Positions 19,923-48,983 of a stretch of DNA of 64,000 nt are shown here, in pieces. This DNA is from Candidatus Woesearchaeota archaeon. Lineage in GTDB: Archaea > Nanobdellota > Nanobdellia > Woesearchaeales > GCA-2686295. Made by a program: the position numbers and the translations under genes. Under the pieces are notes generated by a model. It did no database searches. It had not been told where the DNA came from and worked only from the letters and a program-made list of their open reading frames with translations. The stretch lies in assembly GCA_937912225.1 (NCBI GenBank), contig CALDOJ010000034.1:556-64555 (forward strand). Reading direction: 5' to 3'. The stretch's first letter is position 1; each line of letters begins with the position of its first letter.

Positions 19923-19923
19923 A

Positions 19924-22188: not shown

Positions 22189-22226
22189 TTTTTTGAGGGG
22201 CTTTTCGCCCTTCTTTTTATTTTAAA

Positions 22227-23207: not shown

Positions 23208-23209
23208 AA

Positions 23210-26678: not shown

Positions 26679-26688
26679 GTTTATCTAC

Positions 26689-28431: not shown

Positions 28432-28433
28432 TT

Positions 28434-29567: not shown

Positions 29568-29595
29568 TTTTGCACCTCTTTAAAAATAAATTTAA

Positions 29596-29626
29596 AAAAT
29601 GCTCAGCAGATAATCTGCTGGCATGC
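29596..29626 (-). terminator. Candidate intra-operon terminator or attenuator: a hairpin followed by a T-tract on the minus strand
   Basis: The minus strand reads gccagcagattatctgctgagcattttttaaatttattttt. This is a 6-bp stem (cagcag/ctgctg), a 5-nt loop and a T-run. It lies between the stop of 29667..30896 and the start of 28434..29567. Confidence 0.3.
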
Positions 29627-29666
29627 TCAAAACTAAAAATTTCTGAGCAAAAAATAAAAAATAACT

Positions 29667-30896: not shown

Positions 30897-30963
30897 TTTA
30901 TTCCTCCTAATATACTCTTTTTTTTATAAAATATCGAAAATATACTCTTTTTTATCACTGCGA

Positions 30964-30990
30964 AGTAGTTATTATATATAAATGTTTCTA
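30964..30990 (-). promoter_or_regulatory. Putative promoter of the 29667..30896 unit, with a TATA box, a BRE-like box and an inverted AGTAGTTA 8-mer
   Basis: The minus strand reads agaaacatttatatataataactacttcg. Two 14-bp direct repeats (aaaaaagagtatat) sit in the downstream 5' leader at about 30905-30960. Confidence 0.35.
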
Positions 30991-33227: not shown

Positions 33228-33237
33228 TGTTCAGAGA

Positions 33238-35532
33238 TTACTTTTCTCCACCAATTTCACAACTAGTGTTCTCTCTGCTCTTCATAAAATACTCCATCGA
33301 TGTAATTAATTCAGAAACAGTTATTTCACCAAAGTTTGGTTGTTGTCTAAACAAGTAATCCATGAAAGGAAACATTATTTTTGCTTCTTGTTGTCTCTTT
33401 GAAGGATTCGGACTATAAGCCTGTTTAACTTGGTTAAAATTAGCAGTTGCAACTTCAACATTATTTTCATATGAATCTAATTCTTGAATTAAATTATCTT
33501 CAATTTCAGGAATTTGAGTCTTTGCAATAGCAACTTCTTTATAAGCTCTGCACCACCAAGTATCTTCTTCTCGATTCAAGACATCATTAAAATTGTTCTC
33601 AACCCATCCAATAAGTGCCTCTTTAGAACTAATATCCGCGTCACGAGTACTTTCTTGAACTCTAGAACAAAAAGCGAATTGAATACCAGAAATAGCATAT
33701 TCTGCAGTTGCAACTTCAGGAGCTTCTTCATAAAACAATTTATCAAGAGTTAATTGTGCTCTTGCAGCATCTAATGCATCAAACTTTGCACGATTACTTC
33801 CAGTTTCTTTTTGCTTTCCAGCACCAGTATATTCTGCTCTAAATTTTAAAAATAAAGCATCAACTGCTCGTTCAATAATTACAGGCATTTGAACCTTTCT
33901 AATTGATAACTCACCATTATCTCTGTGCGTATCTCCAACGTCATAAGATTCAACTTCATTTGCTTCTTTATGATAACCTTTTCTAGTAATACTATAACTA
34001 GTATCTTCATCTGTTGGATAACGAATAGCCATAAGAGCCATTCGATCATTCAAAGGACCAGTAAACACAGTATGATCATTCGCAGTTCCAATTATTAAAG
34101 CATCCGCAGGATATTCAAATCTTAATTGATCAGGTTTAATAGTTTCATCTTCAAGCGCTTTTAACATGCTACTATAAGCTTGAGGTCTTAACTTATCCAT
34201 CTCATCAAAAAATGCAATGCCATTATTTGTTCTTACAAGCAAACCTGCATGAAATCCTTCAGGATCGAAGTCACTTTCTCGTTTACCAGTTGTAGTACCA
34301 TCAAGTTTAGGAGTTTTATAACCTGCCAAATCCATTCGTTTTAAACCTTCAGTTCCTTCTGAACTTTCAATACCCATACCTTTACCATACTTTGCAACTT
34401 TGACTTTTACATCTTTAGCAGCAGGTTTTTTGAAAAAACCAGTATCTTTAAAATTAGGGTCGTAAGAAATTTTACATTCAGGACAAGCATCAATTATTTT
34501 TGAAAAGTCCTCATCAAAAAGACTATAAGGATTACATTGTGCTTGACAACCATCAACAATGAAAATAACTTCTTGTTGTTGTGCAATATCAATAATATCT
34601 GCACTAATTTGCGATTTTCCACCACCCGGAGGACCATAGAAAACAAAGTCTTTTCCAAGTAATAAAGCCTTTACAACTCTTTCGGCTCTTTTTGTACTAA
34701 TAACAGTTTTTGGAAAGAATTCGCCAAGAACATATCTTTTAATTTCTTCTTCTTTATCAGCAGGAACTATTTGTCCTAAACTAGAAGCTTGAATATCTTC
34801 ATAATGACCATTAATTCCTAATTTAAAGTTAGTTCTTCTTCCTTGTTTAGCAATAGGTTCATCAAACTCGACATCTATTGTATTACGAGAAGGCACATAA
34901 TGTTTAAGCATAGCAGTTGCTCCCGCCTCAATTTTAATTCCACCACTAATTCGTTCAGAATTAGAATCCCAAACACTTGATGCATCAAATCCTTTTTTAA
35001 ATCTGATCTTATGTCCAAGTTTTTTATCAGCAACAACTTCATCATCAAGAGAATAACCAACAGTTATAGTTCTCTTTCCAGGAAATAGTTTTAAATTATT
35101 CAAAGGAACATATAATCCATGTTCATCATTAAGAGCACCATTCAAATTATTAGCACCTTCAAATCCTTTATTAAATTCAATTCCAACTAAAGGTACTCCT
35201 CTAGTAGTTATTGGCGTTTTAATAACTCCCTTCATACCAGCTATAGGTCGCCCTTCATAATTAGACATTGCTTCAACTTTCATTCCTTCTTGAGCATACT
35301 TCATTATTTCCTCAGCACCAGTTACTAATGGAGGAACTTTTTCAGTTATACTGTTGAATGCAGAATTCCATTTTCCAAGCATTTCATCATTTATTTGCGG
35401 TACAATTGTTTTGAGAATTGACTCTAATCTTCTACGAGTGATTAAAGCGAGATGTGTTGAAGAAGTTTTTGGAACAACTCCTAAATTTACTAAATCTTTT
35501 CCTGTTTTGACCTTAAGGTAATCTTCAAGCAT
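33238..35532 (-). CDS. AAA+ ATPase of the ChlI/MCM/ComM-like clade. A Cys4 zinc-ribbon insertion lies between Walker A and Walker B.
   Basis: Walker A FYGPPGGGKSQ, CQAQCNPY...CPECK insertion, Walker B IAFFDEMDKL, sensor-1 IIGTAN and Arg-finger-like LNDRMALMAIRY. RBS ggaggcg. A promoter sits upstream. Confidence 0.8.
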   Translation of the reverse strand: MLEDYLKVKTGKDLVNLGVVPKTSSTHLALITRRRLESILKTIVPQINDEMLGKWNSAFNSITEKVPPLVTGAEEIMKYAQEGMKVEAMSNYEGRPIAGMKGVIKTPITTRGVPLVGIEFNKGFEGANNLNGALNDEHGLYVPLNNLKLFPGKRTITVGYSLDDEVVADKKLGHKIRFKKGFDASSVWDSNSERISGGIKIEAGATAMLKHYVPSRNTIDVEFDEPIAKQGRRTNFKLGINGHYEDIQASSLGQIVPADKEEEIKRYVLGEFFPKTVISTKRAERVVKALLLGKDFVFYGPPGGGKSQISADIIDIAQQQEVIFIVDGCQAQCNPYSLFDEDFSKIIDACPECKISYDPNFKDTGFFKKPAAKDVKVKVAKYGKGMGIESSEGTEGLKRMDLAGYKTPKLDGTTTGKRESDFDPEGFHAGLLVRTNNGIAFFDEMDKLRPQAYSSMLKALEDETIKPDQLRFEYPADALIIGTANDHTVFTGPLNDRMALMAIRYPTDEDTSYSITRKGYHKEANEVESYDVGDTHRDNGELSIRKVQMPVIIERAVDALFLKFRAEYTGAGKQKETGSNRAKFDALDAARAQLTLDKLFYEEAPEVATAEYAISGIQFAFCSRVQESTRDADISSKEALIGWVENNFNDVLNREEDTWWCRAYKEVAIAKTQIPEIEDNLIQELDSYENNVEVATANFNQVKQAYSPNPSKRQQEAKIMFPFMDYLFRQQPNFGEITVSELITSMEYFMKSRENTSCEIGGEK

Positions 35533-35698: not shown

Positions 35699-36835
35699 TT
35701 AGAAATAATTCCTAATCATATCAGTAAAAGCCCTAGCAATATTATTCAACTGCCTTTTTTCAAACTTTGTTTCAGCAAGAGTTTGACCCTCTAAAGGTTT
35801 ATCAGAACCTACACCAGCAAAGAAATATCTTACTGCATCAACACCATCATAATGATTATGATAACTAGCCATAGGGCCCCATTCCATATCAATAGTTGTA
35901 GCACCAAGATCTCTTGCTTCTTCTAACACAACTCTTTTTTGTCTTAAGATTGATGCAGTATTCAAAGTCGAACCTTCATGAAATGAACCAACATATTTTT
36001 CAAGCATTTCCGTAGCTTTAGGATTAATTAATAATTGATTATTAATTGGATAAATTGTTTGTAAATTATCCTTCAATAATTTCTCATCCATAAATCCTGT
36101 TGGTACAAATACATCTCCAACATTAGCTTTTGAATCTAAAACTCCAACTTTACCATAATGAAAAATATTAACCCACGCACCCAATACTTCATTATTAGTT
36201 GCTAAACAAAATTGTTCTATAACATTCTTTGCCTGGTCAGCAAAAACATAATCAAAATTAACAGCAAAATATCCGCCCATGTCAAGCAATCTGTAATTCA
36301 AAAAATCATTTTTTATTTCATCAATTACTTCAATACCTTCATCTAATGGAAAATTATCAAACGGTCCAAAAATAACATTTAAAACACCATCATGAGTAAA
36401 CTCTTCAACATCCAATCTATCATAAGCCTCATTTACAAGTTCAAATGCTAAATCTCTAAATCTTGCACTTGCAAATTTTTGTTCGCCACCAAAATGTTTT
36501 ATATCCCAGTTTAGTTTTTGTTCTGTTGCTCTTCCTAAAATACCAAAATGATGCCTGATTCTATCATAACGTATATCGCCTTTAGTATTTATTACATGAA
36601 GCGTTCCTGTTGCTTCATCATAGAAATTGCTTTCAACAGAAGCAATTGGTTTAAACTTGAGAAAGCCCCCCATCTCAGGTTCTACTTCCTCTGGTTTAAA
36701 TCCATTATGAAGAACTAAATGTTCTAAGTTCTCAAGTTGTTTTGCCCTGATTGCCTCATCAGGATGCAGTTGTCTATCAACAGTATATTGCACTCTTTTT
36801 TCATCATCCATTAAATCTGTATATATATCAGTCAT
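35699..36835 (-). CDS. Phosphorylase-superfamily (PNP/MTAN-like) nucleosidase-domain protein with an N-terminal extension
   Basis: VGDVFVPTGFM (resembles GDVVV), ATTIDMEWGPMA (resembles the VEMEAAA catalytic-region motif) and FFAGVGSD (resembles RAISD), all in the C-terminal half. Confidence 0.65.
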   Translation of the reverse strand: MTDIYTDLMDDEKRVQYTVDRQLHPDEAIRAKQLENLEHLVLHNGFKPEEVEPEMGGFLKFKPIASVESNFYDEATGTLHVINTKGDIRYDRIRHHFGILGRATEQKLNWDIKHFGGEQKFASARFRDLAFELVNEAYDRLDVEEFTHDGVLNVIFGPFDNFPLDEGIEVIDEIKNDFLNYRLLDMGGYFAVNFDYVFADQAKNVIEQFCLATNNEVLGAWVNIFHYGKVGVLDSKANVGDVFVPTGFMDEKLLKDNLQTIYPINNQLLINPKATEMLEKYVGSFHEGSTLNTASILRQKRVVLEEARDLGATTIDMEWGPMASYHNHYDGVDAVRYFFAGVGSDKPLEGQTLAETKFEKRQLNNIARAFTDMIRNYF

Positions 36836-36836
36836 T

Positions 36837-37037
36837 TTAATAGTAAGTATTCCTCATTCTTCTTTCTCTTCTGCCAGAGCCATATAAATTAAAATGGTCT
36901 CCTGCTTTATCCCAAATAGCTCCAGCTCCAGCTCCAAGAGCAGTATATCCTAAAAGAACTAATCCAAATAAGCCTATACGGAATTTGTTTAAATTAGATC
37001 CTGCTTTAAAGTTCATTTCATAACCATCCATAGCCAT
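36837..37037 (-). CDS. Small membrane protein (66 aa)
   Basis: One Gly/Ala-rich TM helix (IGLFGLVLLGYTALGAGAGAIW). Its stop is 1 nt from the downstream start. Confidence 0.4.
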   Translation of the reverse strand: MAMDGYEMNFKAGSNLNKFRIGLFGLVLLGYTALGAGAGAIWDKAGDHFNLYGSGRRERRMRNTYY

Positions 37038-37070: not shown

Positions 37071-37850
37071 CTACCTATTTTTACCACTCTTTAGTGGTTT
37101 ATTCAAATATTTTTGCATATGATTGAAAGGATCGTCATAACAAAGACAACCAAGAGGAGTTAAAAAATCAGAGAATGTTTGTGCATAAGCAACCAAATCA
37201 CTTATTAAATCTTTATGGTCTTGAAAATTTTGATAAACAACTTCTCTGCCAACAACTCTACCTTTGTTAAGTTCAGATTTATTAATACAATGATCTTTAA
37301 TTAACCAATCAATTGTTTCAGTATCATTAGGATCAAAAATAGCACCAAAATCAATTTGATTAATTTTCAAATCACCAGTTAATAAAACATTAACAGCTCG
37401 CCTATCTTTCAAAGCTAAAGTGTTAACAAGCTCCATTGAATAACCAAAACTATATGCAACTTCCAATTCTTTACCTTCAGGAACATAAAATTTTTTGCCA
37501 GGAAGACCTTCCATCATGACGAGATTTTCATTATGAAGGCCATCCCAAGTAATAAAATTGTGATTCGCACCAGCCAAAATATTATCCAAAGCCATACCAA
37601 GAGCTTCTCTAGAAGCACCTTCCAAAGAAGTTTTAACATAAACATCTTTCTTAGAACCGTTCTTAAGAACAGCTTCATACTTATCAACAGAATAACCAGT
37701 TTTAATTTCAGAAACGTGTTTGAACTTCACAGGTTTTTCACCAAACAAAACACCAGATAATTGTTTAATTCTTCGCGTACGATAATTAAAATGACTAGGT
37801 GCAGGCGGAAGACGAACACGACCAAGAAGTTTATCCAAATCAACATTCAT
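37071..37850 (-). CDS. PI3/PI4-kinase-like atypical kinase-fold protein, group A paralog 6
   Basis: DVYVK Lys, alphaC Glu (SREALGM), catalytic loop ALKDRRAVNVLL and IDFGAIF. Confidence 0.7.
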   Translation of the reverse strand: MNVDLDKLLGRVRLPPAPSHFNYRTRRIKQLSGVLFGEKPVKFKHVSEIKTGYSVDKYEAVLKNGSKKDVYVKTSLEGASREALGMALDNILAGANHNFITWDGLHNENLVMMEGLPGKKFYVPEGKELEVAYSFGYSMELVNTLALKDRRAVNVLLTGDLKINQIDFGAIFDPNDTETIDWLIKDHCINKSELNKGRVVGREVVYQNFQDHKDLISDLVAYAQTFSDFLTPLGCLCYDDPFNHMQKYLNKPLKSGKNR

Positions 37851-38605
37851 CGAGCAACCCCCAAATAATCACACATATAAACAAACGGATCATCACAAAC
37901 AGGTTTTTGAACACAAGTGAAATCTTCAAAAGACCTTGCATAAACAATTAAATCTTCAATTAAATTTTTATTATCTTTAAAATTTTGACGCACCACTTCT
38001 TTACCAGCAACTCGTCCTTTATTTAATTGAACAGAATCCATACTATGAAAATCAATTAAATATTCAATAGAACCATTATCACCAGGATAAAAAAGCGAAC
38101 CAAAATCAATATGATTAATATTAAAGGTTTCAGTTAACAAAACATTAGTAACCCATCTATCTTTAAGAGATAAAGCATTTACTAATTCCATCGAATATCC
38201 AAGATTAAAAGCAACTTCTTTTTCTTTGCCTTTTGGCACATAAAAATCCTCTCCAGGAAGATTTTCCATCACCAGATTATGATTACCAAAACGATCATCC
38301 CATAAAAAATAATTATGACCTGCATCTTGCAACATATTTGCCAAAGTCATTCCAAGCGCTTCTTTGTAAACACCTTCCCAAGACTGTTTAACATAAAAAT
38401 CCTTTTTTGAACCATCTTGAAAAGTAGCTTTATACATATGAACAGTTGATGCATGACCAAGATCACAAGAATGACTAATTTTCTTAGGCATTTCATCAAA
38501 TAATAAACTAGATAATTGTTTAATTCTACGCTTATAAGTATTAACATTAAAAGGCTCAGGAAGTTCAACAATTCCAAGATGTTTATCTAAAACAATATCA
38601 GTCAT
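37847..38605 (-). CDS. PI3/PI4-kinase-like atypical kinase-fold protein, group A paralog 5
   Basis: DFYVK, LKDRWVTNVLL and IDFGSLF. 4-bp overlaps on both sides. Confidence 0.7.
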   Translation of the reverse strand: MTDIVLDKHLGIVELPEPFNVNTYKRRIKQLSSLLFDEMPKKISHSCDLGHASTVHMYKATFQDGSKKDFYVKQSWEGVYKEALGMTLANMLQDAGHNYFLWDDRFGNHNLVMENLPGEDFYVPKGKEKEVAFNLGYSMELVNALSLKDRWVTNVLLTETFNINHIDFGSLFYPGDNGSIEYLIDFHSMDSVQLNKGRVAGKEVVRQNFKDNKNLIEDLIVYARSFEDFTCVQKPVCDDPFVYMCDYLGVAR

Positions 38606-39399
38606 CGAGAAACCCCCAAATAAAGTTTCATATGAGTAAAAGGATCATCTAAAATATAATCATCCTCTTCAGAACACATTTTCTTAGAAAAATAATTAAC
38701 CATTGATTCAATCTCAGGTTGATATTTTAAAAAATTATTACGAATAAGTTTATAGCCATCAATTGTTCCTTCAGAAACAGCATCTTCATCTAAATGAAAC
38801 CATTTAATATGGTAATCTCCTTGAAATAAATCCTTATGATAAAATAAACAATCATTATCAAGATGTCGAACAGCTCCTTTTTCAGATACTAGTATGTTTC
38901 CAGCATGTCGATCATCTAATGCTAAAGTTCTAGCCAATTCTAAAGCAATGCCAAAAGAATAACTAATTTCAGTTTTTAGAGTTTCAGGAAAACCCAATCT
39001 AGAACCTCGCAGTTGATCAATAACAATCATTCTTTCAGGAGTTGAATCATCTAAAGAATCTGAATAAAGAAATTTTTGTTCTTCACCAAGTAATAAATTC
39101 TGTAAAGTTATGCCAACCGCTTCAAACAAAGGATGAGATTTTGGTTCTTTTGCAAAGAAAGTTTCTGAACGTCCATTTTCAAGCAAGATATTAAAACCTG
39201 TAATAGTAGTATAAATCTCCTTTAACATAGCAATACCAAAACTTTTAATTGAAGCTATTTCATCAACTGAAACACCATATAAATCTGATGCAACTTTCTT
39301 TTGAAGAGCTAAATCCTCATGAAAAGTTTTAAGACTGGGAAGAGCAACTTCATAACTAAACAATTCTTTTACAGTATCAGAAAGTTCAGGCAAACTCAT
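38602..39399 (-). CDS. PI3/PI4-kinase-like atypical kinase-fold protein, group A paralog 4. Its DFG position is degenerate.
   Basis: TFFAKEP, LDDRHAGNILV and HLDNDCLF, which has no DFG. Confidence 0.7.
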   Translation of the reverse strand: MSLPELSDTVKELFSYEVALPSLKTFHEDLALQKKVASDLYGVSVDEIASIKSFGIAMLKEIYTTITGFNILLENGRSETFFAKEPKSHPLFEAVGITLQNLLLGEEQKFLYSDSLDDSTPERMIVIDQLRGSRLGFPETLKTEISYSFGIALELARTLALDDRHAGNILVSEKGAVRHLDNDCLFYHKDLFQGDYHIKWFHLDEDAVSEGTIDGYKLIRNNFLKYQPEIESMVNYFSKKMCSEEDDYILDDPFTHMKLYLGVSR

Positions 39400-40148
39400 C
39401 GCTTAACCCCCAGATAATCACACATGTAAGCAAACGGATCATTCAAAACATCAGGTCTTGAAGCAAAAGGTATTTGTTCATCAACCCAATCAACAACCAT
39501 TTTAATATCATCTTTATTATCAATAAATCGTTGACGAATAGCTTCATGAGCTGAAAGTCTTCCTTTGTTAAATTTACGACGACTTAAACCATAAGCATCT
39601 GCAACTTTCGCACCAGTTATCAAATCTTTTTCATCAAATAAACATTCATAATCAATATGTCTGATAGTTCCTCTCCCATCAACTAATAAGTTTCCAGTAT
39701 TTCTATCTTTTAAATGCAAAACCATTTCTAATTCTGAAGCCACACCAAGATTAAAACTGGCTCTTTTCTTACGACCTACATTTTTAAAAATTCTTCCAGG
39801 AATCGCTTCCATCAAAATAGAACTAGGATCTGTTGTATAATCATCAAGTTGAGGAATTGCATAACTCCAATTCTCACCAGTTAAAACATTGTTCAAATAC
39901 CAACCAAGTCCTTCTAATAAAGAACCTGTATGAAAACAATCTTTAACATAAAAAGTCTTATTAGAACCATCACCCAAAGTTAATTCATAACCTTTAATCA
40001 TTTCTTGATTAGTAATTAAACTACTAGAAACAATTTTTTCATCAATACCAAATAAAGCTTTAGGAACATCAGCCATTCTTTTCTCAGAATATACATCATA
40101 AAAAGAAGGAACATCTCCAATCCGAAGTAATTTTTCAGGCGAAGTCAA
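39396..40148 (-). CDS. PI3/PI4-kinase-like atypical kinase-fold protein, group A paralog 3
   Basis: TFYVKD, LKDRNTGNLLV and HIDYECLF. Confidence 0.7.
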   Translation of the reverse strand: MTSPEKLLRIGDVPSFYDVYSEKRMADVPKALFGIDEKIVSSSLITNQEMIKGYELTLGDGSNKTFYVKDCFHTGSLLEGLGWYLNNVLTGENWSYAIPQLDDYTTDPSSILMEAIPGRIFKNVGRKKRASFNLGVASELEMVLHLKDRNTGNLLVDGRGTIRHIDYECLFDEKDLITGAKVADAYGLSRRKFNKGRLSAHEAIRQRFIDNKDDIKMVVDWVDEQIPFASRPDVLNDPFAYMCDYLGVKR

Positions 40149-40936
40149 TTTATTTCACCCTCTAATTTTTGTTTTATATAATCAAAAGGAGAAATAGTTT
40201 CAAACAATTCAGATCTTAATAAACCATCATAAGCCCAGTTAGCCAAATCGCGAATTAGTTCTTCATTAGTTTTGAAATTAACTCTCATCTCTTCACGAGC
40301 ATCAAGTCTGCCTTTTTCAAATTCCTCTTCAGAATAACCACTATTCTTAACTAATTGTTTACCAGTTCGATCATCCCAACCAGCCCAAAATAATGCTCCA
40401 AAATCTATATTACGAATTACTAAGTTATCATCAATTAACATATTAGGACTTCTTCGATCAGCAAGATTTAAAATTTTGGCAGATTCAAAAGCCCGACCCA
40501 TTGAATAAGAAATTTCAGTTAAGAAATCATAATTAACATTAAAAGTTGTTCCAGGAACTTCATCCATAATAACCACATTAATAAAATTATCAAGCAAATC
40601 CAATTTATTAACTAACATCAAGAAATTTCTGTCTTCACCAGTTAATAGATTATTCAAAGTAATACCAACTGCTTCTTGAAACGCACCAGTCACATAGCAA
40701 TCTTCTTCTTCTTTAACATAATAAGTTTTAGAAGTTCCATCTTTAAGCATTAATTTATGACCTGCAACGTTCGAATTTCCAGATGCAAAAGGTTCATCAA
40801 TAAGAATATCGTCTGAATCAACCCCATACATTTCTCTAGCAACATATCTGCCTAAATTTTGAGAATCAAGAAGAGTAACTTCATCAGTAAAAGGCCTATA
40901 ATTCAACAAGTCTTTCATTCTATCTGGAAAACTCAT
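40145..40936 (-). CDS. PI3/PI4-kinase-like atypical kinase-fold protein, group A paralog 2
   Basis: TYYVKE, LADRRSPNMLI and IDFGALF. Confidence 0.7.
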   Translation of the reverse strand: MSFPDRMKDLLNYRPFTDEVTLLDSQNLGRYVAREMYGVDSDDILIDEPFASGNSNVAGHKLMLKDGTSKTYYVKEEEDCYVTGAFQEAVGITLNNLLTGEDRNFLMLVNKLDLLDNFINVVIMDEVPGTTFNVNYDFLTEISYSMGRAFESAKILNLADRRSPNMLIDDNLVIRNIDFGALFWAGWDDRTGKQLVKNSGYSEEEFEKGRLDAREEMRVNFKTNEELIRDLANWAYDGLLRSELFETISPFDYIKQKLEGEIN

Positions 40937-41736
40937 TTCTCAGCCTCCAAATAAAGTTTCATATAAGAAAAAGGATCTTCAATATGCTTTTCATCATCCA
41001 AATATTGCAAACCAGATTGTTCGCTAAAATATGTTAATACATCTTTAATTAATGATTCATTATCTAAAAAATTTTTAACAATTATTTTTCTTGCATCTGA
41101 TTGTCCTTGTGAAACTAATTCTGCATCAAGTCCCAGAACATATCCTCCTTTAAAAATATCTTTTAACATTCCAAGATTCCAAGAATATTCTTTATTAAAA
41201 ATAGTTTCATAATCAACATTTCTAATAATAGAATTTTCACAAATAACCAAATTTGAATTATTACGGTCGGTTAAAGAAAGAGTTTTAGCCAATTCTAAAC
41301 TAGCACCAAAACTTTGACTCATATTAGTACTAGCATCATTAAAATATGTCACACTAGTTCCAATATCTTCCATAGCAACATAACCAAATTTCCAATCACC
41401 AGTTTCAGATCTGCTAGCAACAAAGTTATGGTTTTCACCTAAAAGAATATTGCTTAAAGTCCAACCAACAGCTTCACTTAAAGAACTTTCAAGACATTTC
41501 TTATAATAAAATTGTTTAATTAAACCATCCTTAAAAAGAGTTTCATATACTCGAGTGTTAGGAGACCAAACAGTATCTAAGAAATTAACAGTTATAATTT
41601 CTGATTCAGGAACACCATAAAGTGAACTTGCAACAGACTCCATAATATCAGGATTATTTTTAACTTTTGAAAAATCTGGAAGAGAGGTTAACCTAAGTAA
41701 ATCTTCAATCTTTGTTTGAGTTGATTGTTTAGTCAT
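40933..41736 (-). CDS. PI3/PI4-kinase-like atypical kinase-fold protein, group A paralog 1
   Basis: QFYYKK, LTDRNNSNLVI and VDYETIF. Confidence 0.7.
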   Translation of the reverse strand: MTKQSTQTKIEDLLRLTSLPDFSKVKNNPDIMESVASSLYGVPESEIITVNFLDTVWSPNTRVYETLFKDGLIKQFYYKKCLESSLSEAVGWTLSNILLGENHNFVASRSETGDWKFGYVAMEDIGTSVTYFNDASTNMSQSFGASLELAKTLSLTDRNNSNLVICENSIIRNVDYETIFNKEYSWNLGMLKDIFKGGYVLGLDAELVSQGQSDARKIIVKNFLDNESLIKDVLTYFSEQSGLQYLDDEKHIEDPFSYMKLYLEAEK

Positions 41737-42224
41737 TTTATTCGACGATATTCAAAAACATTTTTTTTTAAGTATAATTGCATATGACTTGGTAAATGTT
41801 CACCAATCTGATTTATTGCATCAGGCGATTGGTTATGAATAAGTAAACTATGTAAAGCTTCAACAGGAATATTTTGAAATGAAATAAATTCTCTAAAATA
41901 ATCAGTCGATTTTCTATAAGGATTTCTTTCAATACCTAACTCCTGAGCAAATTTTTCAGCCATAGATTCATAACCCGAATATTTGAACAATTCACTATTT
42001 TCTTTAATATAATTATTATCAAGAACGAATCCAGTACTACCACCCCAAAAATCTACATTTGCTTTTTTTGGCATTGGAAATTTTTCTTCCCAATAAGCAA
42101 AACAAATTCTATCATTAGATGATTCAAAATAATTTTTATTACCTGTTTCAGAAGGTAATCTTAAACCTTCACTAAGTATAGGAAGGACAGATATCACTTC
42201 AGTCATATGTGTCAATATCGGCAT
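41733..42224 (-). CDS. Small paralog family member 3 (~163 aa, unknown domain)
   Basis: Alignment with its two paralogs places the true start at MPILTHMTEV, 1 nt after the upstream stop. Conserved motifs are THxT, LPSETGN, DRI(C/S)F, NIPVE(A/G) and a C-terminal HMQLYL...YRRIK. Confidence 0.6.
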   Translation of the reverse strand: MPILTHMTEVISVLPILSEGLRLPSETGNKNYFESSNDRICFAYWEEKFPMPKKANVDFWGGSTGFVLDNNYIKENSELFKYSGYESMAEKFAQELGIERNPYRKSTDYFREFISFQNIPVEALHSLLIHNQSPDAINQIGEHLPSHMQLYLKKNVFEYRRIK

Positions 42225-42225
42225 T

Positions 42226-42750
42226 TTATTTAATCCTCCGATAAAATGAGTCATCAGTTTGTTTAGTATATAATCCCATATGTGCTGGCAAAATTGATTT
42301 AATTTTTTGAAATTCTTCTGTCTCAAGAGATAATATTGTATTAAATCTAGAATCTAAAAATAAACTGTGAATTCCTTCTACAGGAATATTTTCAAAAGAT
42401 ACTACTTCATTAAAATTAAATCTTGGAACTTCTAAGTCTATAACTTCCATTCCTTGTCTATTTGCATAATCAATTACTTCTTCACTCTTAGTAATATAAC
42501 ATTTGAATTCGTCTTTATTTTCAGATATGTACTTTGGGTCTAAAACTAAATTAATGTCATTATTCCAACCGCTTAAATAAGTATTTTCGCTTTCTAAATC
42601 TAAATCAGGATTACATGAAAAACTTATTCTATCTGTAGGAAAAAACCAATCCCAATTACTATTACCTGTTTCTCGTGGTTTTTTAATCCCATTTTTAAAA
42701 ATAGGTTCTAGATATTCCAGATAAGTTGAATGTGATAAAACTCCGTTCAT
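42226..42750 (-). CDS. Small paralog family member 2 (174 aa, unknown domain)
   Basis: KPRETGNSNW, DRISF, NIPVEG, AHMGLY...FYRRIK. Confidence 0.6.
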   Translation of the reverse strand: MNGVLSHSTYLEYLEPIFKNGIKKPRETGNSNWDWFFPTDRISFSCNPDLDLESENTYLSGWNNDINLVLDPKYISENKDEFKCYITKSEEVIDYANRQGMEVIDLEVPRFNFNEVVSFENIPVEGIHSLFLDSRFNTILSLETEEFQKIKSILPAHMGLYTKQTDDSFYRRIK

Positions 42751-43256
42751 TTCATCCTCCGATAAAATAAATCATCTGTTTGTTTTGAATATAATCGAAT
42801 ATGAGCAGGTGCTTGTTTTTGAATTTCATTAATTTCAGATTTTGAATCTGATTGGTGAAATAATGCATATAATCCTTCAACAGGAATATTTGCAAATGAA
42901 ACTACTTCATTAGGAACTTCATGTTTGGTTGGATTTTTAATAGTCCTAATTCCAAGTTCTTTGATAAATGTTTGAAAAATATCTTCACGCGCAGGTTCTG
43001 CTTCAAAATTATTCAAATTATCTTTTAAGTAATCAGGATCGACAAAGAATCCAGTTCTTTCTCCATACCAAAAATCATTAAAACCAATACTTGTTTTTGG
43101 AAAAGGTGTTTCTTCAGGATGAAGTAAAAAGCTTATTCTATCACTCGCAGAATACTCTGGCCAATTACAATTACCAGTTTCAGAAGGTAATTTTAATCCT
43201 TCTTTAAGTATTAAAGGCACATATACATTCCGTGTTGCATGAGTTAGAATTGTCAT
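42747..43256 (-). CDS. Small paralog family member 1 (~170 aa, unknown domain)
   Basis: The true start is probably MTILTHATRN. LPSETGNCNW, DRISF, NIPVEG, AHIRLY...FYRRMK. Confidence 0.6.
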   Translation of the reverse strand: MTILTHATRNVYVPLILKEGLKLPSETGNCNWPEYSASDRISFLLHPEETPFPKTSIGFNDFWYGERTGFFVDPDYLKDNLNNFEAEPAREDIFQTFIKELGIRTIKNPTKHEVPNEVVSFANIPVEGLYALFHQSDSKSEINEIQKQAPAHIRLYSKQTDDLFYRRMK

Positions 43257-43257
43257 T

Positions 43258-44160
43258 TTATTCTCGCAACACCTCGGCCTTTGATGAATTTGTATAAGAA
43301 TGAATACTATTATGAGGATCGTAATCGAAGTTAGCACCTCTATGAACTGCATAATTAAGAAGCTCTTGAATTAAACCTTGATTAATGGCAATATTTTTAG
43401 CAATTAGTTCTCTGCCAAATAACTTACCAGCTTCAAATTGTTCTTCTTCACAATCTGAAAGCGTAATATCATAACATGGATCAACTTGTAAGCCTACTTC
43501 TTCACAAAAAATTGTGCTAAAATCAATAGGCACAATAGTTTCATCATCACCTAAAATAATATTCTCATCATGTCTATCATCTAAACCTAAAGCAGTTGAT
43601 AGTTCTGAAGCAACACCATAATTAAAAGATTCTTTATCTGAAAAAATATAACCCCTTTCCATATTTGCAAAAGTTTTCCCAGGAATTCCAACTGATAAAA
43701 AAGTTCCAGTTTCTTCACAAGCAGCAAATCTATAAGTTTCAGTTTCATTATCTGAAGATAAAATATCTCCAAGAACACTTCCTAAAGCATCTACTATAAT
43801 CGGCCTTTGCCAAGCAGGTTTAGCATAAAAATCGCTCTTTGTACCATCTTTAAATTCTACAAGAAAACGAGCATAGAAATCACAATCTTCATAAAAAAAA
43901 TTAGAATCTTTTTCAATTGAAACAACTGATTCTGGTTCACAAGAATATAAAGAAGCAGCAACATCAACCATGTCTGCAGTTCCTGAAACTATATTAATAA
44001 TATGTGGTAAATCTTTCAAGCTTAACATTGAACGTAAATAATTTTCAGGTAAATCACCATTCCAAACAGTTTCAGGTTTATGATAAGCTAAAGGTAAACG
44101 TTCATATTCTTCTAAATAACTTGACAGGTCTGAATTGTTTGAATTTTGTGTGTTAGTCAT
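43258..44160 (-). CDS. PI3/PI4-kinase-like atypical kinase-fold protein, group B paralog 3
   Basis: SDFYAKP, LGLDDRHDENIIL and PIDFSTIF. The start is probably MTNTQNS. Confidence 0.7.
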   Translation of the reverse strand: MTNTQNSNNSDLSSYLEEYERLPLAYHKPETVWNGDLPENYLRSMLSLKDLPHIINIVSGTADMVDVAASLYSCEPESVVSIEKDSNFFYEDCDFYARFLVEFKDGTKSDFYAKPAWQRPIIVDALGSVLGDILSSDNETETYRFAACEETGTFLSVGIPGKTFANMERGYIFSDKESFNYGVASELSTALGLDDRHDENIILGDDETIVPIDFSTIFCEEVGLQVDPCYDITLSDCEEEQFEAGKLFGRELIAKNIAINQGLIQELLNYAVHRGANFDYDPHNSIHSYTNSSKAEVLRE

Positions 44161-44161
44161 T

Positions 44162-45652
44162 TTATTCTTGCATTGACCTCCTGTGCGCACTAACATAAGA
44201 ATCTATACTTTCTTCAGGTTTATGAGTAAAAGATGCGTTTTTATGATGTGCATAAGCAATCAACTGATGTATTACGCCTTTATTTTGTTCATAATTCTTC
44301 GTAATCATTTCTAATCCCATTTGTCTTCCTGCTTTAACCATTTCTGCATTAGCAGGTTCTTCATGACTACAAGAATATTCACTAGTTGAAGAAGTACGAA
44401 ACAAAGTTCCAAAATCAATAGGAATAACCATATCATCATCTGCAATCATAATATTTTGATCGTGCCGATCAGTTAATCCTAAAGCTCTTGATAATTCTAT
44501 TGCAACTCCATAATTAAATGCTGCTTGATCTGAAAAATCTTCTCCCTTATGTTTAAAGGTCGTAGCAGAAATTCCAGTTGAAGCACAAGTTTTATTTTCT
44601 TCGCAACCTATAAATGAGTAAGTAGTTTTTGGAAGATGACCTTTAGTTAGAATATAAGCTAAAGTATTACCAAGTGTTTCAGAAACTACTGATCCTTCCC
44701 AATTTTTTTTAAGATAAAAATCACTTTTCACACCATTTTTAAAATCTATAAAAAAATGATTAACAGTACCATAACCAAATTTTCTATCTTTCTTAATTGA
44801 TTTAATAGATTTAATATCACAAGAATATAATTTTGCAGCAATTTCTTTACGCTGTTTATAAGTTCCCATACCAACACTATAATAAAATCCAACATCAGCA
44901 GATATATCAGGCAAATCAACTAAACCCAATATTTCTCGAAGAACTTCTTCAGAAGTTTCACCAGTCCATACAGGATCAGGTATTGACTCTGGTTCTGGTT
45001 TAGGTTCAGGTAATTTAATTTCAACAGGATCAGGCCTATCAACAACCATTCCAATATTTTGCAAAGGAACTTCTTCTTTAGGTAACTTAAGTATAGCGCC
45101 TAAATCATAAGGATTTTGAAATCCAAATATATTAAGAAAACCATAAGGCTTATTAACATGATAAGGATTAACTGCAGGTTCTTGTTCTTTTCCTGCAATA
45201 ATATCTTCAAGTAAAAGAGGATTATCAACCACATATCTAATTTGTTTTTCATTTTGTTCTTGTTTATTATTCATACCGTGCAAGAATTTTTTATCTTTTT
45301 CTCGCAGACCACCATAAGGTTGAATCTTTGGGTTTACCAAAAGCTCCATATTTCTAATAAAACCAAAATCATAATTAATAAGTTCAACTTTTTCTTTCTT
45401 GGGTTGTTTATGCACAAGCTTTTCTTTACGATCAACAGGAGCAAAATCTAAAAGAGGATCAACTAAATCTTGTTGAAGATAATTTATGGCATTATCAGGA
45501 TTAATACCACCCATTGCATACATCATAGCGCCAGCCAAAGGTAACATCATATTTCTGGCTCTATTTAGTCCTCGATGTTCTGCATTTTCATTAGACTTTT
45601 TTTTAGGAGAGTTATGAGATTCTTTGTTTAATCTTTGTTTAAGTATCATCAT
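44162..45652 (-). CDS. PI3/PI4-kinase-like atypical kinase-fold protein, group B paralog 2, with a ~200-aa basic or low-complexity N-terminal extension
   Basis: SDFYLKK, LGLTDRHDQNIMI and IPIDFGTLF. Confidence 0.7.
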   Translation of the reverse strand: MMILKQRLNKESHNSPKKKSNENAEHRGLNRARNMMLPLAGAMMYAMGGINPDNAINYLQQDLVDPLLDFAPVDRKEKLVHKQPKKEKVELINYDFGFIRNMELLVNPKIQPYGGLREKDKKFLHGMNNKQEQNEKQIRYVVDNPLLLEDIIAGKEQEPAVNPYHVNKPYGFLNIFGFQNPYDLGAILKLPKEEVPLQNIGMVVDRPDPVEIKLPEPKPEPESIPDPVWTGETSEEVLREILGLVDLPDISADVGFYYSVGMGTYKQRKEIAAKLYSCDIKSIKSIKKDRKFGYGTVNHFFIDFKNGVKSDFYLKKNWEGSVVSETLGNTLAYILTKGHLPKTTYSFIGCEENKTCASTGISATTFKHKGEDFSDQAAFNYGVAIELSRALGLTDRHDQNIMIADDDMVIPIDFGTLFRTSSTSEYSCSHEEPANAEMVKAGRQMGLEMITKNYEQNKGVIHQLIAYAHHKNASFTHKPEESIDSYVSAHRRSMQE

Positions 45653-46773
45653 TGCACCTCTTTTTCTAAACTAGAACTCTTAACATTAGTAGCATAAGAA
45701 CTAAGAACAGTTTCGGGTTTTTCTGAAAAATCTGCACCAAGATGTTGAGCATAAGATATAAGTTCAGATATTAAGCCTTTATGTCGTTCATAATTACTTG
45801 CAATTACTTCTCTGGCTTTTAATTTACCTTCTTCAATTAAATCAGTATTTGTTGGTTTAACCGCACCAAAATCATGATACCGTTCATAATTAGGAGGATT
45901 TTCAGGACCAAATATAGTATCAAAATCGATTTGTACAACAACATCATCAGATCTTAAAAGAGTATTAAGATCGTGTCTATCACGCAGGCCTAAAGCAAGC
46001 GATAATTCTACTGCCATGCCATAACTTAAAGTTGCTTTATCAGAAAACTCTTCAGGTTTAACATCTTTAAACATCTTACCTTCAATTCCAACTGATGCAA
46101 AAGTTCCTGTTTCTTCACATGCTGCAGATTGATATGTGTCTTTAAGAGTTTCATCTCCTAAAAGATTCAATAAAGCATTTCCTAAAGCATCCACGATTAC
46201 TGGTGCATTCCAGGAAGGTTTTACATAGAAATCACTTTCAGTTCCATCATCAAACTTGACTAAAAAACGGCCGTAATTATTTCTGTTTGAAAAATTAAAA
46301 TTTCCATCTTGAACAATGGAAACAACTTCATCAGGTTTACATCCATATACGGTTGAAGCGAGTTCTACCAAATCAGTTTCGCCTGAAACAATTTCTCTAC
46401 TATCAGGCAAATTAACTAAACCTAATAATCCTTGTAATTTTTCTTCAGGAATACTTCCAATCCAAGTAGCAGGATGTTTATTAGATTTAAGAGGATTACG
46501 AGAAGAATACTTCTGTATTGTGTTTCTATGTTTTAAATTTTCATCAAAATATTCTAAATATAATTCTAAATTTTCAAAAGTTAATCGATTATCAATAGCC
46601 CTAACTATTTCAGAATGATATTGAGCCATTAATTGATCTTTATCAGTATGTACTTCTTCGTCAGAAAAATCATCTTCAGGAGAAAGTATACTCAGACGTT
46701 CTAAAGCAGGATCTACATAAGGTAAAAACAATTCAACTGGATTATAACATTCAAATAAATTGGCTTTAAGCAT
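45649..46773 (-). CDS. PI3/PI4-kinase-like atypical kinase-fold protein, group B paralog 1. First gene of the array.
   Basis: SDFYVKP, LGLRDRHDLNTLL and QIDFDTIF. Confidence 0.7.
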   Translation of the reverse strand: MLKANLFECYNPVELFLPYVDPALERLSILSPEDDFSDEEVHTDKDQLMAQYHSEIVRAIDNRLTFENLELYLEYFDENLKHRNTIQKYSSRNPLKSNKHPATWIGSIPEEKLQGLLGLVNLPDSREIVSGETDLVELASTVYGCKPDEVVSIVQDGNFNFSNRNNYGRFLVKFDDGTESDFYVKPSWNAPVIVDALGNALLNLLGDETLKDTYQSAACEETGTFASVGIEGKMFKDVKPEEFSDKATLSYGMAVELSLALGLRDRHDLNTLLRSDDVVVQIDFDTIFGPENPPNYERYHDFGAVKPTNTDLIEEGKLKAREVIASNYERHKGLISELISYAQHLGADFSEKPETVLSSYATNVKSSSLEKEVQ

Positions 46774-46811
46774 TCAAATACCTCTTTTTACACCATTTAT
46801 AGCAGTTTTAC

Positions 46812-46840
46812 TATTTAAATGTTTCGTTTTTTAACTACTT
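46812..46840 (-). promoter_or_regulatory. Putative promoter of the 12-gene array: the AGTAGTTA box, a BRE-like cgaaac and the TATA-like box tttaaata
   Basis: The minus strand reads gttactataaagtagttaaaaaacgaaacatttaaatag, 40-70 nt upstream of the ATG at 46773. Confidence 0.4.
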
Positions 46841-46919
46841 TATAGTAACAACATTAAATACATTTAAATATAACCAACCATTACCAAATAAAAAAACCAA
46901 TATTTAAGGTGATGAAATT

Positions 46920-47792
46920 ATGGAAATTGGAACCTATGCAATATACGACAAAGATACTCAATTAATCGGATTTGGTGAAGGCAGATTCAATGTAAAAGGA
47001 GATGATTTAAATCTTACAATAGATGTTTTAGCAAAAGAATTAGATGTACAAACAGAAAGACAAACTCTTCTAAATCCAAAATTCAAAGAAGGAGAAATAG
47101 TTGAATTAAATTCAGGAGACTATAAAATTAAAGTCGAAGGAAAAACAGAATTAGATCACATAGTAACTGGAGCTAACGCAAATATCAAATACAAACAAAA
47201 AGGAAATTCTTCATCAATAAACATTTCAAGCGGCTCAGTAGTCATAATTAATGGCTCAGTAGTTTCAGGAAATATGCAACAATCAATCGGTTCAAATATG
47301 GAACCTCAAAACTTAGAAGTTTATGGAAATAATGCAGATATCAAATTCAAATCAGGAGCAAGTTCATTATCAGTTTACGGAGATAATTGCAAAGCTAAAA
47401 CTGACGTTGGAAGTGGACAATTTTATGGAACAGGAGAATCAATGAAAGTAAAAATAGATGCAGGAAGCGGAAAAACAACAGTCGAAGGAGATAACGCAAA
47501 TGTTGATGTTGATGCAGGAAGCGGAGATGTAACTGTCAAAGGAAAATATGCAACCGTAAAAGTAGATGCAGGAAGTGCAAAAGTTTTTGTTGAAGGAGAA
47601 CGTGCAGAAATCAACACGGATTTAGGAAGTGGACAAGTTCATTACACAGGCAATAACGGAATACTCGATTTAGACTTTGGTAGTGGAAAATTATATTTGA
47701 ACGGAGATAACAACGATGTAACTGTTGATGGGTCAAGAAGTCCAAAACACCATGTTGTTGATAATGGGAAAAATAACAATATTCACGACTAA
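46920..47792 (+). CDS. Beta-strand repeat protein (DUF4097/toast-rack-like repeats)
   Basis: About 19-residue repeats of the form xxDxGSGxVxVxG: DAGSGKTTVEGDNANVDVDAGSGDVTVKG, DAGSAKVFVEG, DLGSGQVHYTG, DFGSGKLYLNG. Confidence 0.6.
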   Translation: MEIGTYAIYDKDTQLIGFGEGRFNVKGDDLNLTIDVLAKELDVQTERQTLLNPKFKEGEIVELNSGDYKIKVEGKTELDHIVTGANANIKYKQKGNSSSINISSGSVVIINGSVVSGNMQQSIGSNMEPQNLEVYGNNADIKFKSGASSLSVYGDNCKAKTDVGSGQFYGTGESMKVKIDAGSGKTTVEGDNANVDVDAGSGDVTVKGKYATVKVDAGSAKVFVEGERAEINTDLGSGQVHYTGNNGILDLDFGSGKLYLNGDNNDVTVDGSRSPKHHVVDNGKNNNIHD

Positions 47793-47885: not shown

Positions 47886-48983
47886 ATGAACAAATGGGAA
47901 AAAGCAAAGATTCTTGGAGCTGCTGGAAGCTATGATTCATGCGGTCCAAAGATGTGCGAAGTTAACATCAAAGAAGGACTTGGAGGAATTTATCATGCAC
48001 AAGCAGAACATAAGGATTGTCGAATCTTCAAGACCCTTATGGATAATCGTTGTACATTTGATTGCAAGTATTGCGCAAACGCAGCAGGTTGCAAAAAAAA
48101 ACCTGCAAGCTACGAACCTGAAGAACTTGCTCAAGTATTCACATTCCTGGAAAAAAATCTAAAAGTGGATGGACTCTTTCTTAGCTCCGCCATCACTGGC
48201 AACCCCGACCAAGTCTCGGAAAAGATGTTAGACGCCGTCCGTCTTCTAAGAAACAAATATCATTTCCGAGGCTACGTCCACTTTAAGGTATTACCAGGAA
48301 CAAGTTACGACTTAATTAAACAAGCAGCAGAACTCAGCAATAGAATGAGCATCAATGTTGAAGCACCCAACAAACAAGTTTTATCAGAGTTATCAACAAA
48401 TAAAGATTTTAAAATAGATATCTTAAGAAGACAGGCTTGGATTTCAAAAATGAATCTTAGAAGCGGACAAACAACCCAAATGATAATCAATAATTTAGCA
48501 ACTGACAAAGATGTTCTAAAAATGGTTGATTGGGAATACAAAAATATTGAACTAAAAAGAATGTACTTTTCAGCATTCAAACCAGTGAAAGGAACAGCTT
48601 TACAAAATGAAGCTCCAGAAACACAACTAAGAGAAGCACATCTTTACAACGTTGATTTTTTAATGAGACAATATGATTTTAAAGTAAAAGAATTTAATCC
48701 AATTCTTGATAACGGAATGCTTCCAAGAGAAGACCCAAAACTAGCATTAGCAAAAGCAAACTTTGACTCACACATCGATATTAATCAAGCTTCATACCAA
48801 GAACTAATTCGAATTCCAGGTATTGGACCAACAACTGCACAAAGAATATTAAATTCCAAAACTAAAATTAAAAAATATGAAGATTTACATAAATTAGGTG
48901 GATGGGTTAAAAGAGCAAAACCATTCATAGAAGTAGGCGGTAAAAGACAACAAATGCTCAACGCTTACTATCAAAAAGCTTGA
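47886..48983 (+). CDS. Radical SAM protein with a C-terminal helix-hairpin-helix motif, putatively DNA-associated
   Basis: CTFDCKYC is the CX3CX2C motif. The C-terminal IRIPGIGPTTAQRIL is an HhH. Confidence 0.7.
   Translation: MNKWEKAKILGAAGSYDSCGPKMCEVNIKEGLGGIYHAQAEHKDCRIFKTLMDNRCTFDCKYCANAAGCKKKPASYEPEELAQVFTFLEKNLKVDGLFLSSAITGNPDQVSEKMLDAVRLLRNKYHFRGYVHFKVLPGTSYDLIKQAAELSNRMSINVEAPNKQVLSELSTNKDFKIDILRRQAWISKMNLRSGQTTQMIINNLATDKDVLKMVDWEYKNIELKRMYFSAFKPVKGTALQNEAPETQLREAHLYNVDFLMRQYDFKVKEFNPILDNGMLPREDPKLALAKANFDSHIDINQASYQELIRIPGIGPTTAQRILNSKTKIKKYEDLHKLGGWVKRAKPFIEVGGKRQQMLNAYYQKA

Follow-up and report, generated by a model that had tools for sequence, protein, structure and literature searches.

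This study focused on a tandem array of twelve genes carried by a 64,000-nucleotide stretch of DNA (the window) from a Candidatus Woesearchaeota archaeon, contig CALDOJ010000034.1. The array occupies positions 37071-46773 of the minus strand, where the listing of open reading frames (ORFs) gave twelve consecutive frames and left no space for others, in agreement with an earlier note made from the sequence. Read in the direction of transcription, it comprises three kinase-like genes (B3, B2, B1), three genes for small proteins (S3, S2, S1) and six further kinase-like genes (A6 to A1). All-vs-all BLAST divided the products into two mutually unrelated sets, the nine kinase-like and the three small paralogs. 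Expect values (E) ranged from 7e-3 to 1e-81 between kinase-like pairs, most being below 1e-10, and from 3e-16 to 1e-30 between the small proteins (identity 34-40%, 163-174 aa), so that the paralogy within each set is far above chance.

The array opens with B3 (45649-46773, 374 aa), in which an N-terminal extension of about 106 aa precedes a PI3/4K-fold core with the motifs FLVK, GLRDRHDLN and IDFD. B2 (44162-45652, 496 aa, or 495 aa if it starts at 45649) has an extension of about 231 aa and the motifs FYLK, GLTDRHDQN and IDFG, while B1 (43258-44160, 300 aa from the ATG at 44160, or 312 aa if from 44196) carries FYAK, GLDDRHDEN and IDFS. The small paralogs follow as S3 (42747-43256, 169 aa; ILTHAT, ETGN, NEVVSFANIPVE), S2 (42226-42750) and S1 (41733-42224, 163 aa; ILTHMT, ETGN, REFISFQNIPVE). 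The remaining genes are A6 (40933-41736, 267 aa; FYYK, SLTDRNNSN, VDYE), A5 (40145-40936, 263 aa; YYVK, NLADRRSPN, IDFG), A4 (39396-40148, 250 aa, with a TTG start overlapping the A5 stop; FYVK, HLKDRNTGN, IDYE), A3 (38602-39399; LDND, with the His of DRH present), A2 (37847-38605, 252 aa, 52% identical to A1; FYVK, SLKDRWVTN, IDFG) and A1 (37071-37850, 259 aa; VYVK, ALKDRRAVN, IDFG). Eleven of the twelve proteins are acidic, with isoelectric points of 4.3-6.3, and no signal peptides or transmembrane segments were found in any of the twelve.

Three gene starts were re-read at the minus-strand junctions. The true starts of S1, S3 and B1 are most likely internal ATG codons lying one base past the upstream stop (GAATAAaATG), which gives the lengths listed above. 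Genes called independently on further contigs of this organism agree for S1 (163 aa) and S3 (169 aa) but keep B1 at 312 aa. Eight of the eleven junctions are then four-base overlaps, seven of them ATGA and one, between A5 and A4, TTGA; the other three are one-base TAA-a-ATG spacers. The earlier description of overlaps or abutments at almost every junction stands, apart from the single TTGA overlap and the spacers of one base. Sigma-70-like and terminator-like sites inside the array were no more frequent than in shuffled sequence. Judged by this tight translational coupling, the twelve genes form one tightly packed operon and one predicted transcription unit, as had been proposed. In the divergent intergenic region upstream of B3 (46774-46919), an TTTAAATA element at about 46812-46819, some 40 nt before the ATG, is a candidate archaeal TATA-type promoter, and a GAGGT Shine-Dalgarno-like site is also present. 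A C-terminal peptide of group A, YLGV.R, is encoded by TTGGGGGTT…CG-ATGA at the 3' ends of A2, A3 and A4 (37850-37870, 38605-38625 and 39399-39420). Its codons overlap the GGGGG or GGAGG Shine-Dalgarno-like site of the next gene, so that part of the apparent protein conservation may be a translation signal.

The nine kinase-like paralogs share 20-52% identity. Both pairwise identity and a neighbour-joining tree recovered the division into A1-A6 and B1-B3 drawn by the earlier note, with each group monophyletic. The size range given there for group A (250-267 aa) was also confirmed, and that for group B (312-496 aa) probably extends down to 300 aa, the most likely length of B1. Invariant in all nine are the Lys of [FY][FYV]xK, the Glu of YG.A.E, the D-R-x-x-x-N motif, the Asp at the DFG position and a few Gly and Leu residues. 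The N-lobe Lys is in addition invariant across 51 family members. The conserved skeleton first proposed is thus correct for the Lys, Glu, Asp-Arg, Asn and DFG Asp, but not for the His of DRH, which occurs only in A3, B1, B2 and B3 and is replaced by R, W or N in the other copies. The variants at the DFG position are exactly as had been listed: IDFG in A1, A2, A5 and B2, LDND in A3, IDYE in A4, VDYE in A6, IDFS in B1 and IDFD in B3. The metal-binding Asp lies 11 residues past the catalytic-loop Asn in every copy, the same spacing as in PI4KA, and it is the F and G positions that vary.

Several comparisons agreed on the kind of protein encoded. A profile built from the nine cores and searched against all sequences of the Protein Data Bank (PDB) found PI4KA first, at E=1.1e-6, followed by Mec1, PI3K-gamma, PI4KB, PI3K-alpha and ATR. 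The alignment with PI4KA covers residues 1496-1554 (L.lkDRH.gNi..d..g.i.hiDFG..F), where the PI4KA sequence reads kDRHnGN. Fold-match scores were highest for PI3K-alpha (11.7) and for PI4KA, PI4KB, Vps34 and actin-fragmin kinase (all 11.5), and lower for LicM2 and CylM (9.7 and 9.1), CtkA (9.2) and PI4K type II (9.1), with SelO, Bud32, HipA and MavQ also among the lower matches. Matches to the Pfam model PI3_PI4_kinase (PF00454) cover only profile positions of about 140-178, from the catalytic loop to the DFG, and B2 alone exceeds its cut-off of 27.1 bits (29.5 bits), the other eight scoring 12-21 bits or giving no match. No non-kinase fold emerged, and the shared motif fell on the catalytic-loop and DFG positions of PI4KA, PI3K and the PI3K-related kinases (PIKK). 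The agreement of fold and motif alignment supports the kinase interpretation, and the nine paralogs are accordingly modelled with a bilobal fold of the PI3/PI4-kinase-like kind, as the earlier note had supposed.

They are not orthologues of eukaryotic PI3K or PI4K but a separate, rare family of bare cores of about 250 aa. The N-lobe Lys, the D-R-(H)-x-x-N loop, the DFG Asp and their spacing are common to both. The array kinases differ in being bare cores encoded by standalone genes, in having the His in four of nine copies, and in having one of nine above the Pfam cut-off. The helical and FAT accessory domains of eukaryotic type III PI3K, PI4K and PIKK are absent, group A consisting of the core only, and the N-terminal extensions of B1-B3 have no Pfam match. 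Actin-fragmin kinase, Helicobacter pylori CtkA, PI4K type II and Legionella MavQ belong to the same fold class, but the array kinases are archaeal, occur in nine tandem copies, and lack detectable membership of these families or secretion signals.

The earlier suggestion of a mix of active kinases and pseudokinases was not borne out. The Lys, the catalytic Asp, the Arg, the Asn and the DFG Asp are present in nine of nine. Variation in these motifs is confined to the His of DRH and to the positions that follow the DFG Asp, and the sequences offer no positive sign of pseudokinases. Variability peaks, in A3 numbering and mapped on the model, at residues 21-30, 51-70, 111-120, 191-200 and 241-250. 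Residues 51-70 form an N-lobe hairpin and 191-200 follow directly after the DFG, at the equivalent of the activation loop. This pattern would fit a conserved catalytic engine combined with diverged substrate recognition. The net charge of the post-DFG loop was dropped as an argument against lipid or nucleic-acid substrates, as the PI4KA segment is also net negative.

Relatives of the kinase-like proteins are few. When 1.84 billion representative proteins were searched exhaustively with the profile, 110 matched at E<=1e-3, of which 54 reached E<=1e-10 and 20 reached E<=1e-30; the best seven were the window's own proteins and the eighth was a sister-strain variant of A6. The remaining matches were mostly standalone proteins of 250-320 aa. 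A word-indexed search with the same profile recovered the window's own proteins only. These searches indicate a real but rare family. All relatives with readable context lay on archaeal contigs, with markers such as L35Ae, S3Ae, L37ae, Pcc1, prefoldin, aIF2, a TFS-like zinc ribbon and GatE-like proteins. On the contigs examined they were single-copy except for one tandem pair (contig L009), and they had no conserved neighbours and no S-like gene beside them. A hand-made pattern, GL.DRH..N(11)IDF, was also scanned over GTDB genomes and viral contigs. It found five loci in the GTDB genomes, one of them a family member in the form of a split gene on a contig labelled Methanosarcinales. Nineteen giant-virus loci with the pattern encode proteins of about 700 aa that match at the catalytic loop only, and these were set aside as generic PI3/4K-like kinases outside the family. 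The contig with the tandem pair also carries, at 2807-3556, a relative (28% identity, E=5e-19) of a 223-aa protein encoded at 2163-2834 of the window. The latter has no family match and, on this comparison, appears to represent a lineage-specific family.

In the neighbour-joining tree, A1-A6 and B1-B3 formed two separate clades nested among other family members, suggesting that the nine copies arose in two local expansions by tandem duplication. Multi-copy use of the domain recurs elsewhere in fused form: in two giant proteins from other metagenomes, P0038 (5071 aa; contig L026, 5001-20216) and P0045 (4792 aa), kinase-like repeats follow one another in tandem at intervals of about 300 residues. 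Each has 8-11 kinase-profile matches and an N-terminal hydrophobic segment, and P0038 has eleven D-R-x-x-x-N motifs, ten of which precede an ID[FLY]-type motif. Among eight longer members scanned, the only fusion recognised by Pfam was in P0066 (588 aa), where a kinase-like member is joined to a C-terminal SAM-dependent methyltransferase.

The three small paralogs had been recognised by the earlier note as paralogous but were left uninterpreted, and the fold now assigned to them changes the picture of the operon. They had no family match in Pfam (E<=1), NCBIfam, PADLOC or PHROG, and no relatives outside this organism were found in 5.8 billion proteins (word-indexed), in GTDB species genomes or in IMG/VR viral contigs; a single match in JGI metagenome contigs (L022) came from the same organism. 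A profile of S1-S3 searched against PDB sequences gave DarT1 of E. coli C7 as the top match, at a non-significant E=0.098. In this alignment ILTHxT…IL.eGL lies over LFHFTH…ILDNGL and nEvvSF.nIP over QAAILVFEKIP, so that the invariant His (in ILTHxT) and Glu (in NEVVSF) face the DarT1 segments LFHFTH and QAAILVF. The Ala opposite the Glu presumably reflects a Glu-to-Ala mutant used for crystallisation. An AlphaFold2 model of S2, built from an alignment of the three sequences, reached a pLDDT (predicted local distance difference test) of 77.8 and a pTM (predicted template-modelling score) of 0.78 in one of five models, the other four lying at about 45-54. Its best match scores were to DarT1 (8.6, 22% identity) and to the DarT proteins of Mycobacterium tuberculosis (8.1), Thermus (7.7) and Thermosipho (DarTG, 7.6), followed by SopF, the Rhs toxin TreX, heat-labile enterotoxin, scabin, pertussis toxin, pierisin and PARPs. 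Foldseek likewise placed DarT1 first (E=5.4e-4, probability 1.0, TM 0.51) and Tpt1 second.

S1-S3 share the motif pattern h-h-x-H-x-T, a helix ending in G-h and a later E-h-h-x-h, a hallmark of the His-Tyr-Glu branch of ADP-ribosyltransferases (ARTs), which includes PARP, Tpt1 and DarT. The model and the motifs together make it probable that S1-S3 have an ART fold, nearest to DarT and Tpt1, although the available family models place them in neither of the two. Resemblance to DarT (DUF4433) extends over the fold, the N-terminal h-h-x-H-x-T with the IL..GL helix, and the later E-h-h-x-F...IP strand; S1-S3 differ in having no Pfam DUF4433 match, in being acidic, and in forming three tandem copies amid kinase-like genes. 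With Tpt1/KptA they would share the NAD+-binding, ART-like lobe, but there is no Pfam PTS_2-RNA match and no sign of the Tpt1 N-terminal lobe, and a length of 163-174 aa with a single-lobe match argues against the two-lobe architecture. No Macro or NADAR domain, the marks of a DarG or a NADAR antitoxin, was found in any gene between 25293 and 48983, and the sole ADP-ribose hydrolase of the region is encoded by a DraG-like gene at 23210-24268.

The array lies near genes of NAD+ metabolism, of which the opposite strand of the window holds an unusual concentration. A block of ten genes at 17033-25278 (plus strand) encodes a radical-SAM protein, NadE, a Nudix protein, an NMNAT-like protein, a kinase of the eukaryotic protein kinase (ePK) type, two unknown proteins of 332 and 120 aa, a pyruvate-kinase-barrel-like protein, the DraG-like ADP-ribosylglycohydrolase and an NAD-kinase-like protein. 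It looks like a conserved DPANN module for NAD+ synthesis and turnover, with an unexplained kinase and pyruvate-kinase-barrel protein as members. The block is syntenic, at 26-63% identity, with positions 11146-18677 of a related archaeal contig, L047: NadE, the Nudix, NMNAT-like and ePK-type proteins, the 332-aa unknown and the pyruvate-kinase-like protein are 44-63% identical, and the NAD-kinase-like protein is 26% identical. Contig L047 has no twelve-gene array, no counterpart of the seven-gene block described below and no DraG-like gene. Because the NAD+ block is syntenic in this array-free contig, the array appears to be an insertion into a conserved NAD+ neighbourhood. The window also encodes an NrtR-like, ADP-ribose-responsive regulator (4591-5280) and a complete de novo NadB-NadA-NadC set (7785-11344), both unexpected for a reduced DPANN-type genome.

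The DraG-like gene (23210-24268, plus strand) is closely packed within the block, separated from one neighbour by 2 nt and overlapping the other by 4 nt, and its product would be a candidate eraser for S1-S3. The ART-like genes and the extra ADP-ribosylhydrolase occur together in one genome and are both missing from L047, but this is only suggestive. The arrangement recalls the reversible ADP-ribosylation of DraT-DraG in having an ART-like writer and a DraG-family hydrolase in the same region. It differs from it in that 18 kb separate the S genes from the DraG-like gene, which lies on the other strand, and in that the ART is DarT/Tpt1-like and not of the DraT class.

Downstream of A1, after 33 nt, is a gene for a 66-aa protein with one hydrophobic helix (36837-37037, minus strand), followed after 1 nt by a gene for a 378-aa PNP_UDP_1/DUF6909-like protein (35699-36835, minus strand) with a nucleoside phosphorylase/nucleosidase fold; from their spacing, both genes are probably co-transcribed with the array. 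The PNP-like protein has only 17 homologues in the 5.8 billion proteins, the named ones from Woesearchaeota and Nanoarchaeota metagenome-assembled genomes, and in L047 its gene adjoins the same NAD+ block. Between the PNP-like gene and the NAD+ block of the window are seven uncharacterised minus-strand genes (25293-35532), including two AAA+ ATPases, one a 764-aa Mg-chelatase/MCM-like protein with a zinc-ribbon-like insert and the other a 580-aa AAA protein. PADLOC and PHROG gave no system match for these seven genes, and PDB sequence searches with the PNP-like and the two AAA+ proteins gave no informative match. Divergent from the array, on the plus strand, are genes for a 290-aa repetitive, beta-rich protein with DUF3060-like and SPP1_Dit-like repeats (46920-47792) and for a radical-SAM protein with a helix-hairpin-helix tail (47886-48983). 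The idea of a provirus or other mobile element found no support, there being no integrase, no tRNA, uniform GC content and no PHROG matches of note.

The same organism was represented in at least eight other aquatic metagenome assemblies by contigs 99.97-100% identical to the window. It occurs in brackish water, for example in the samples of project PRJEB22997. A 1.2-kb contig of a sister strain (L021, 1-1244) was compared with positions 40500-42000 and was about 100% identical at the S1 end and over part of A5, with only 40-75% DNA identity across central A6. Such a mosaic points to either recombination or rapid divergence within the array. Of the eight same-species contigs, five end at 42164-42211, within S1, and two at 39521, within A4, which together with the divergence of L021 is consistent with strain heterogeneity inside the array. 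To the left of the window, the continuation on contig L027 encodes an OLD-family nuclease (AAA_15 with an OLD-like TOPRIM; 12543-14123) between dnaK and dnaJ. A tyrosyl-tRNA synthetase just outside the window (15369-16448 of L027) matched only eukaryotic and archaeal-type structures, with no bacterial type listed, and its best matches (1.6e-116, against 7.5e-85 for archaeal structures) are, we assume, protist enzymes. The synthetase marks the organism as an archaeon, and, with the Woesearchaeota and Nanoarchaeota names of the PNP-like homologues, it agrees with a DPANN-type assignment.

Taken together, these features are read here as a set of modifying enzymes, some ATP-dependent and some NAD+-dependent, that is specific to this lineage and diversified in the targets it recognises, most likely with a role in conflict or host interaction, and this is held as a working interpretation with somewhat less than an even chance of being right. 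The operon of this DPANN-type archaeon would encode two batteries of covalent-modification enzymes. One would consist of nine minimal PI3/PI4-kinase-fold ATP phosphotransferases, the product of two bursts of tandem duplication, and the other of S1-S3 as three NAD+-dependent ADP-ribosyltransferases of the DarT/Tpt1/PARP-like (His...Glu) kind. From their sequences, all twelve proteins would be active enzymes. The post-DFG stretch and the N-lobe hairpin may contact the substrate, with each copy recognising a different target or target variant. S1-S3 as writers and the DraG-like protein as eraser could together run a cycle of ADP-ribosylation, with NAD+ supplied through the neighbouring genes. The whole might then act as a diversified module whose targets are macromolecules, such as proteins, belonging to a partner cell or a virus. 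A bolder version, which we regard as improbable, is an inter-cellular system, either symbiont-host or antiviral, in which a DPANN episymbiont uses its diversified PI-kinase-fold enzymes and DarT/Tpt1-like ADP-ribosyltransferases to rewrite its partner's proteins, lipids or nucleic acids, fed by its own NAD+ synthesis block and reset by the DraG-like enzyme, with the giant repeat proteins as its fused version.

Several observations weigh against such a battery of conflict enzymes. Relatives of the kinase-like proteins elsewhere are usually single-copy among housekeeping genes, which points to a basal role within the cell itself. The earlier note likened the array to diversified effector, defence or immunity arrays, but PADLOC, PHROG and NCBIfam hold no family of defence proteins, toxins or effectors that matches any of the twelve. 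Since neither signal peptides nor transmembrane segments were found, it is also hard to see how the proteins would reach another cell. The ART assignment hangs on the one confident model in five and on an alignment of three sequences, and the DarT match was not recovered when single S sequences were searched against PDB sequences. The co-occurrence of ART-like genes and hydrolase comes from a single genome comparison. The array proteins are also acidic, unlike typical nucleic-acid-modifying ARTs, which makes DNA or RNA targets less likely.

That last point bears on a different reading, in which the array is a nucleic-acid module like ArkI/KptA, with the kinase-fold proteins phosphorylating ribose hydroxyls of RNA and Tpt1-like proteins removing or capping the phosphates using NAD+. 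There is an archaeal precedent for such a pairing, as ArkI, a member of the protein-kinase superfamily, 2'-phosphorylates U47 of tRNA and KptA erases the mark using NAD+ (PMC9095486), and Tpt1 is also reported to ADP-ribosylate 5'-phosphate ends (PMC6182162). Single-copy kinase relatives among translation and RNA genes on several archaeal contigs would also fit. However, ArkI is ePK-type and not PI3/4K-like, ArkI and KptA are single-copy and not in an array, nine writers for three erasers are without parallel, the array proteins are not basic, and S1-S3 are single-domain proteins that resemble Tpt1 in one lobe only; the reading is considered unlikely, with a low but appreciable probability. 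A toxin-antitoxin or abortive-infection locus, with S1-S3 as DarT-like toxins and the kinase-like proteins as neutralisers or sensors, for example by phosphorylating the toxin as type VII toxin-antitoxin systems do, is given a similarly modest chance. DarT was the top match in both Foldseek and the sequence-profile search, conflict loci typically show paralog expansion and rapid, mosaic divergence from strain to strain, and two AAA+ ATPases and a PNP-fold protein lie downstream. Yet the operon has no DarG-like macro or NADAR antitoxin, PADLOC was without a match for the kinase-like, ART-like and PNP-like proteins, the ratio is nine to three with no pairing, and in all the other genomes examined the kinase-like family is found by itself.

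The similarity to PI4KA, PI4KB, PI3K and Vps34, together with the matches to PI4K type II and the Legionella lipid kinase MavQ, raises the question of whether these are true lipid kinases whose substrates are archaeal membrane lipids of the inositol type, either the cell's own or those of a host, with the ART-like proteins as unrelated passengers; one relative (on contig L011) adjoins a gene of the inositol-monophosphatase family. But because PIKK protein kinases and actin-fragmin kinase score equally well, the fold does not indicate a lipid substrate, and this explanation, which we think has only a slim chance, leaves the tight coupling to the ART-like genes unexplained and finds no membrane-binding segments or conserved neighbourhoods to draw on. 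It is comparably doubtful that the array specifies a hetero-oligomer in which most paralogs are a non-catalytic, pseudokinase scaffold. Translational coupling does imply near-equal stoichiometry, the giant fused proteins with at least ten kinase-like repeats suggest physical cooperation between copies, five of nine have lost the His of DRH, and F and G of DFG vary. Against this, all nine keep the Lys, catalytic Asp, Asn and DFG Asp despite an overall identity of 20-30%, and type II PI4K-like kinases also lack the His of DRH. Weak Pfam DUF4135 matches in A6, B1 and B2 recall LanM-like kinase domains, and would fit a cluster tailoring a ribosomally synthesised and post-translationally modified peptide or a small molecule by phosphorylating Ser/Thr or hydroxyls. 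These matches are weaker than those to PI3/4K, and the lanthipeptide (LanM) reading was rejected as very improbable, there being no LanC-like cyclase, lyase, transporter or plausible precursor nearby; the sole small ORF encodes the 66-aa protein with a membrane helix.

Neither the kinase-like family nor an operon combining a PI-kinase fold with DarT/Tpt1-like proteins was found described in curated libraries (PADLOC, PHROG, NCBIfam) or in the literature searched, which also yielded no paper connecting PI3/PI4-kinase-like proteins to DPANN archaea or to DarT-like ARTs. In fold and apparent mode of action the proteins resemble enzymes of the PI3/PI4-kinase superfamily and of the DarT/Tpt1 type, but neither Pfam thresholds nor accessory domains nor partner genes place them in described families. 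They are regarded here as novel families of known superfamilies that occur in a combination not seen before.

Enzymes with the PI3/PI4-kinase fold play a central part in eukaryotic signalling but have been poorly charted in archaea. Here, a rare kinase family has expanded to nine bare cores in a probably reduced DPANN genome, linked in an operon to putative ART-fold orphans and tied to genes of NAD+ metabolism. If the enzymes are active, this pairing of ATP- and NAD+-dependent modification has not been described before as a system. Should their targets turn out to be RNA, ribosomal proteins or other housekeeping molecules, the locus would extend the idea, drawn from ArkI/KptA, that archaea phosphorylate macromolecules reversibly. 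Active enzymes could also show how ultra-small archaea manipulate their partners or resist viruses, and might serve as minimal, tractable models of the PI-kinase fold.

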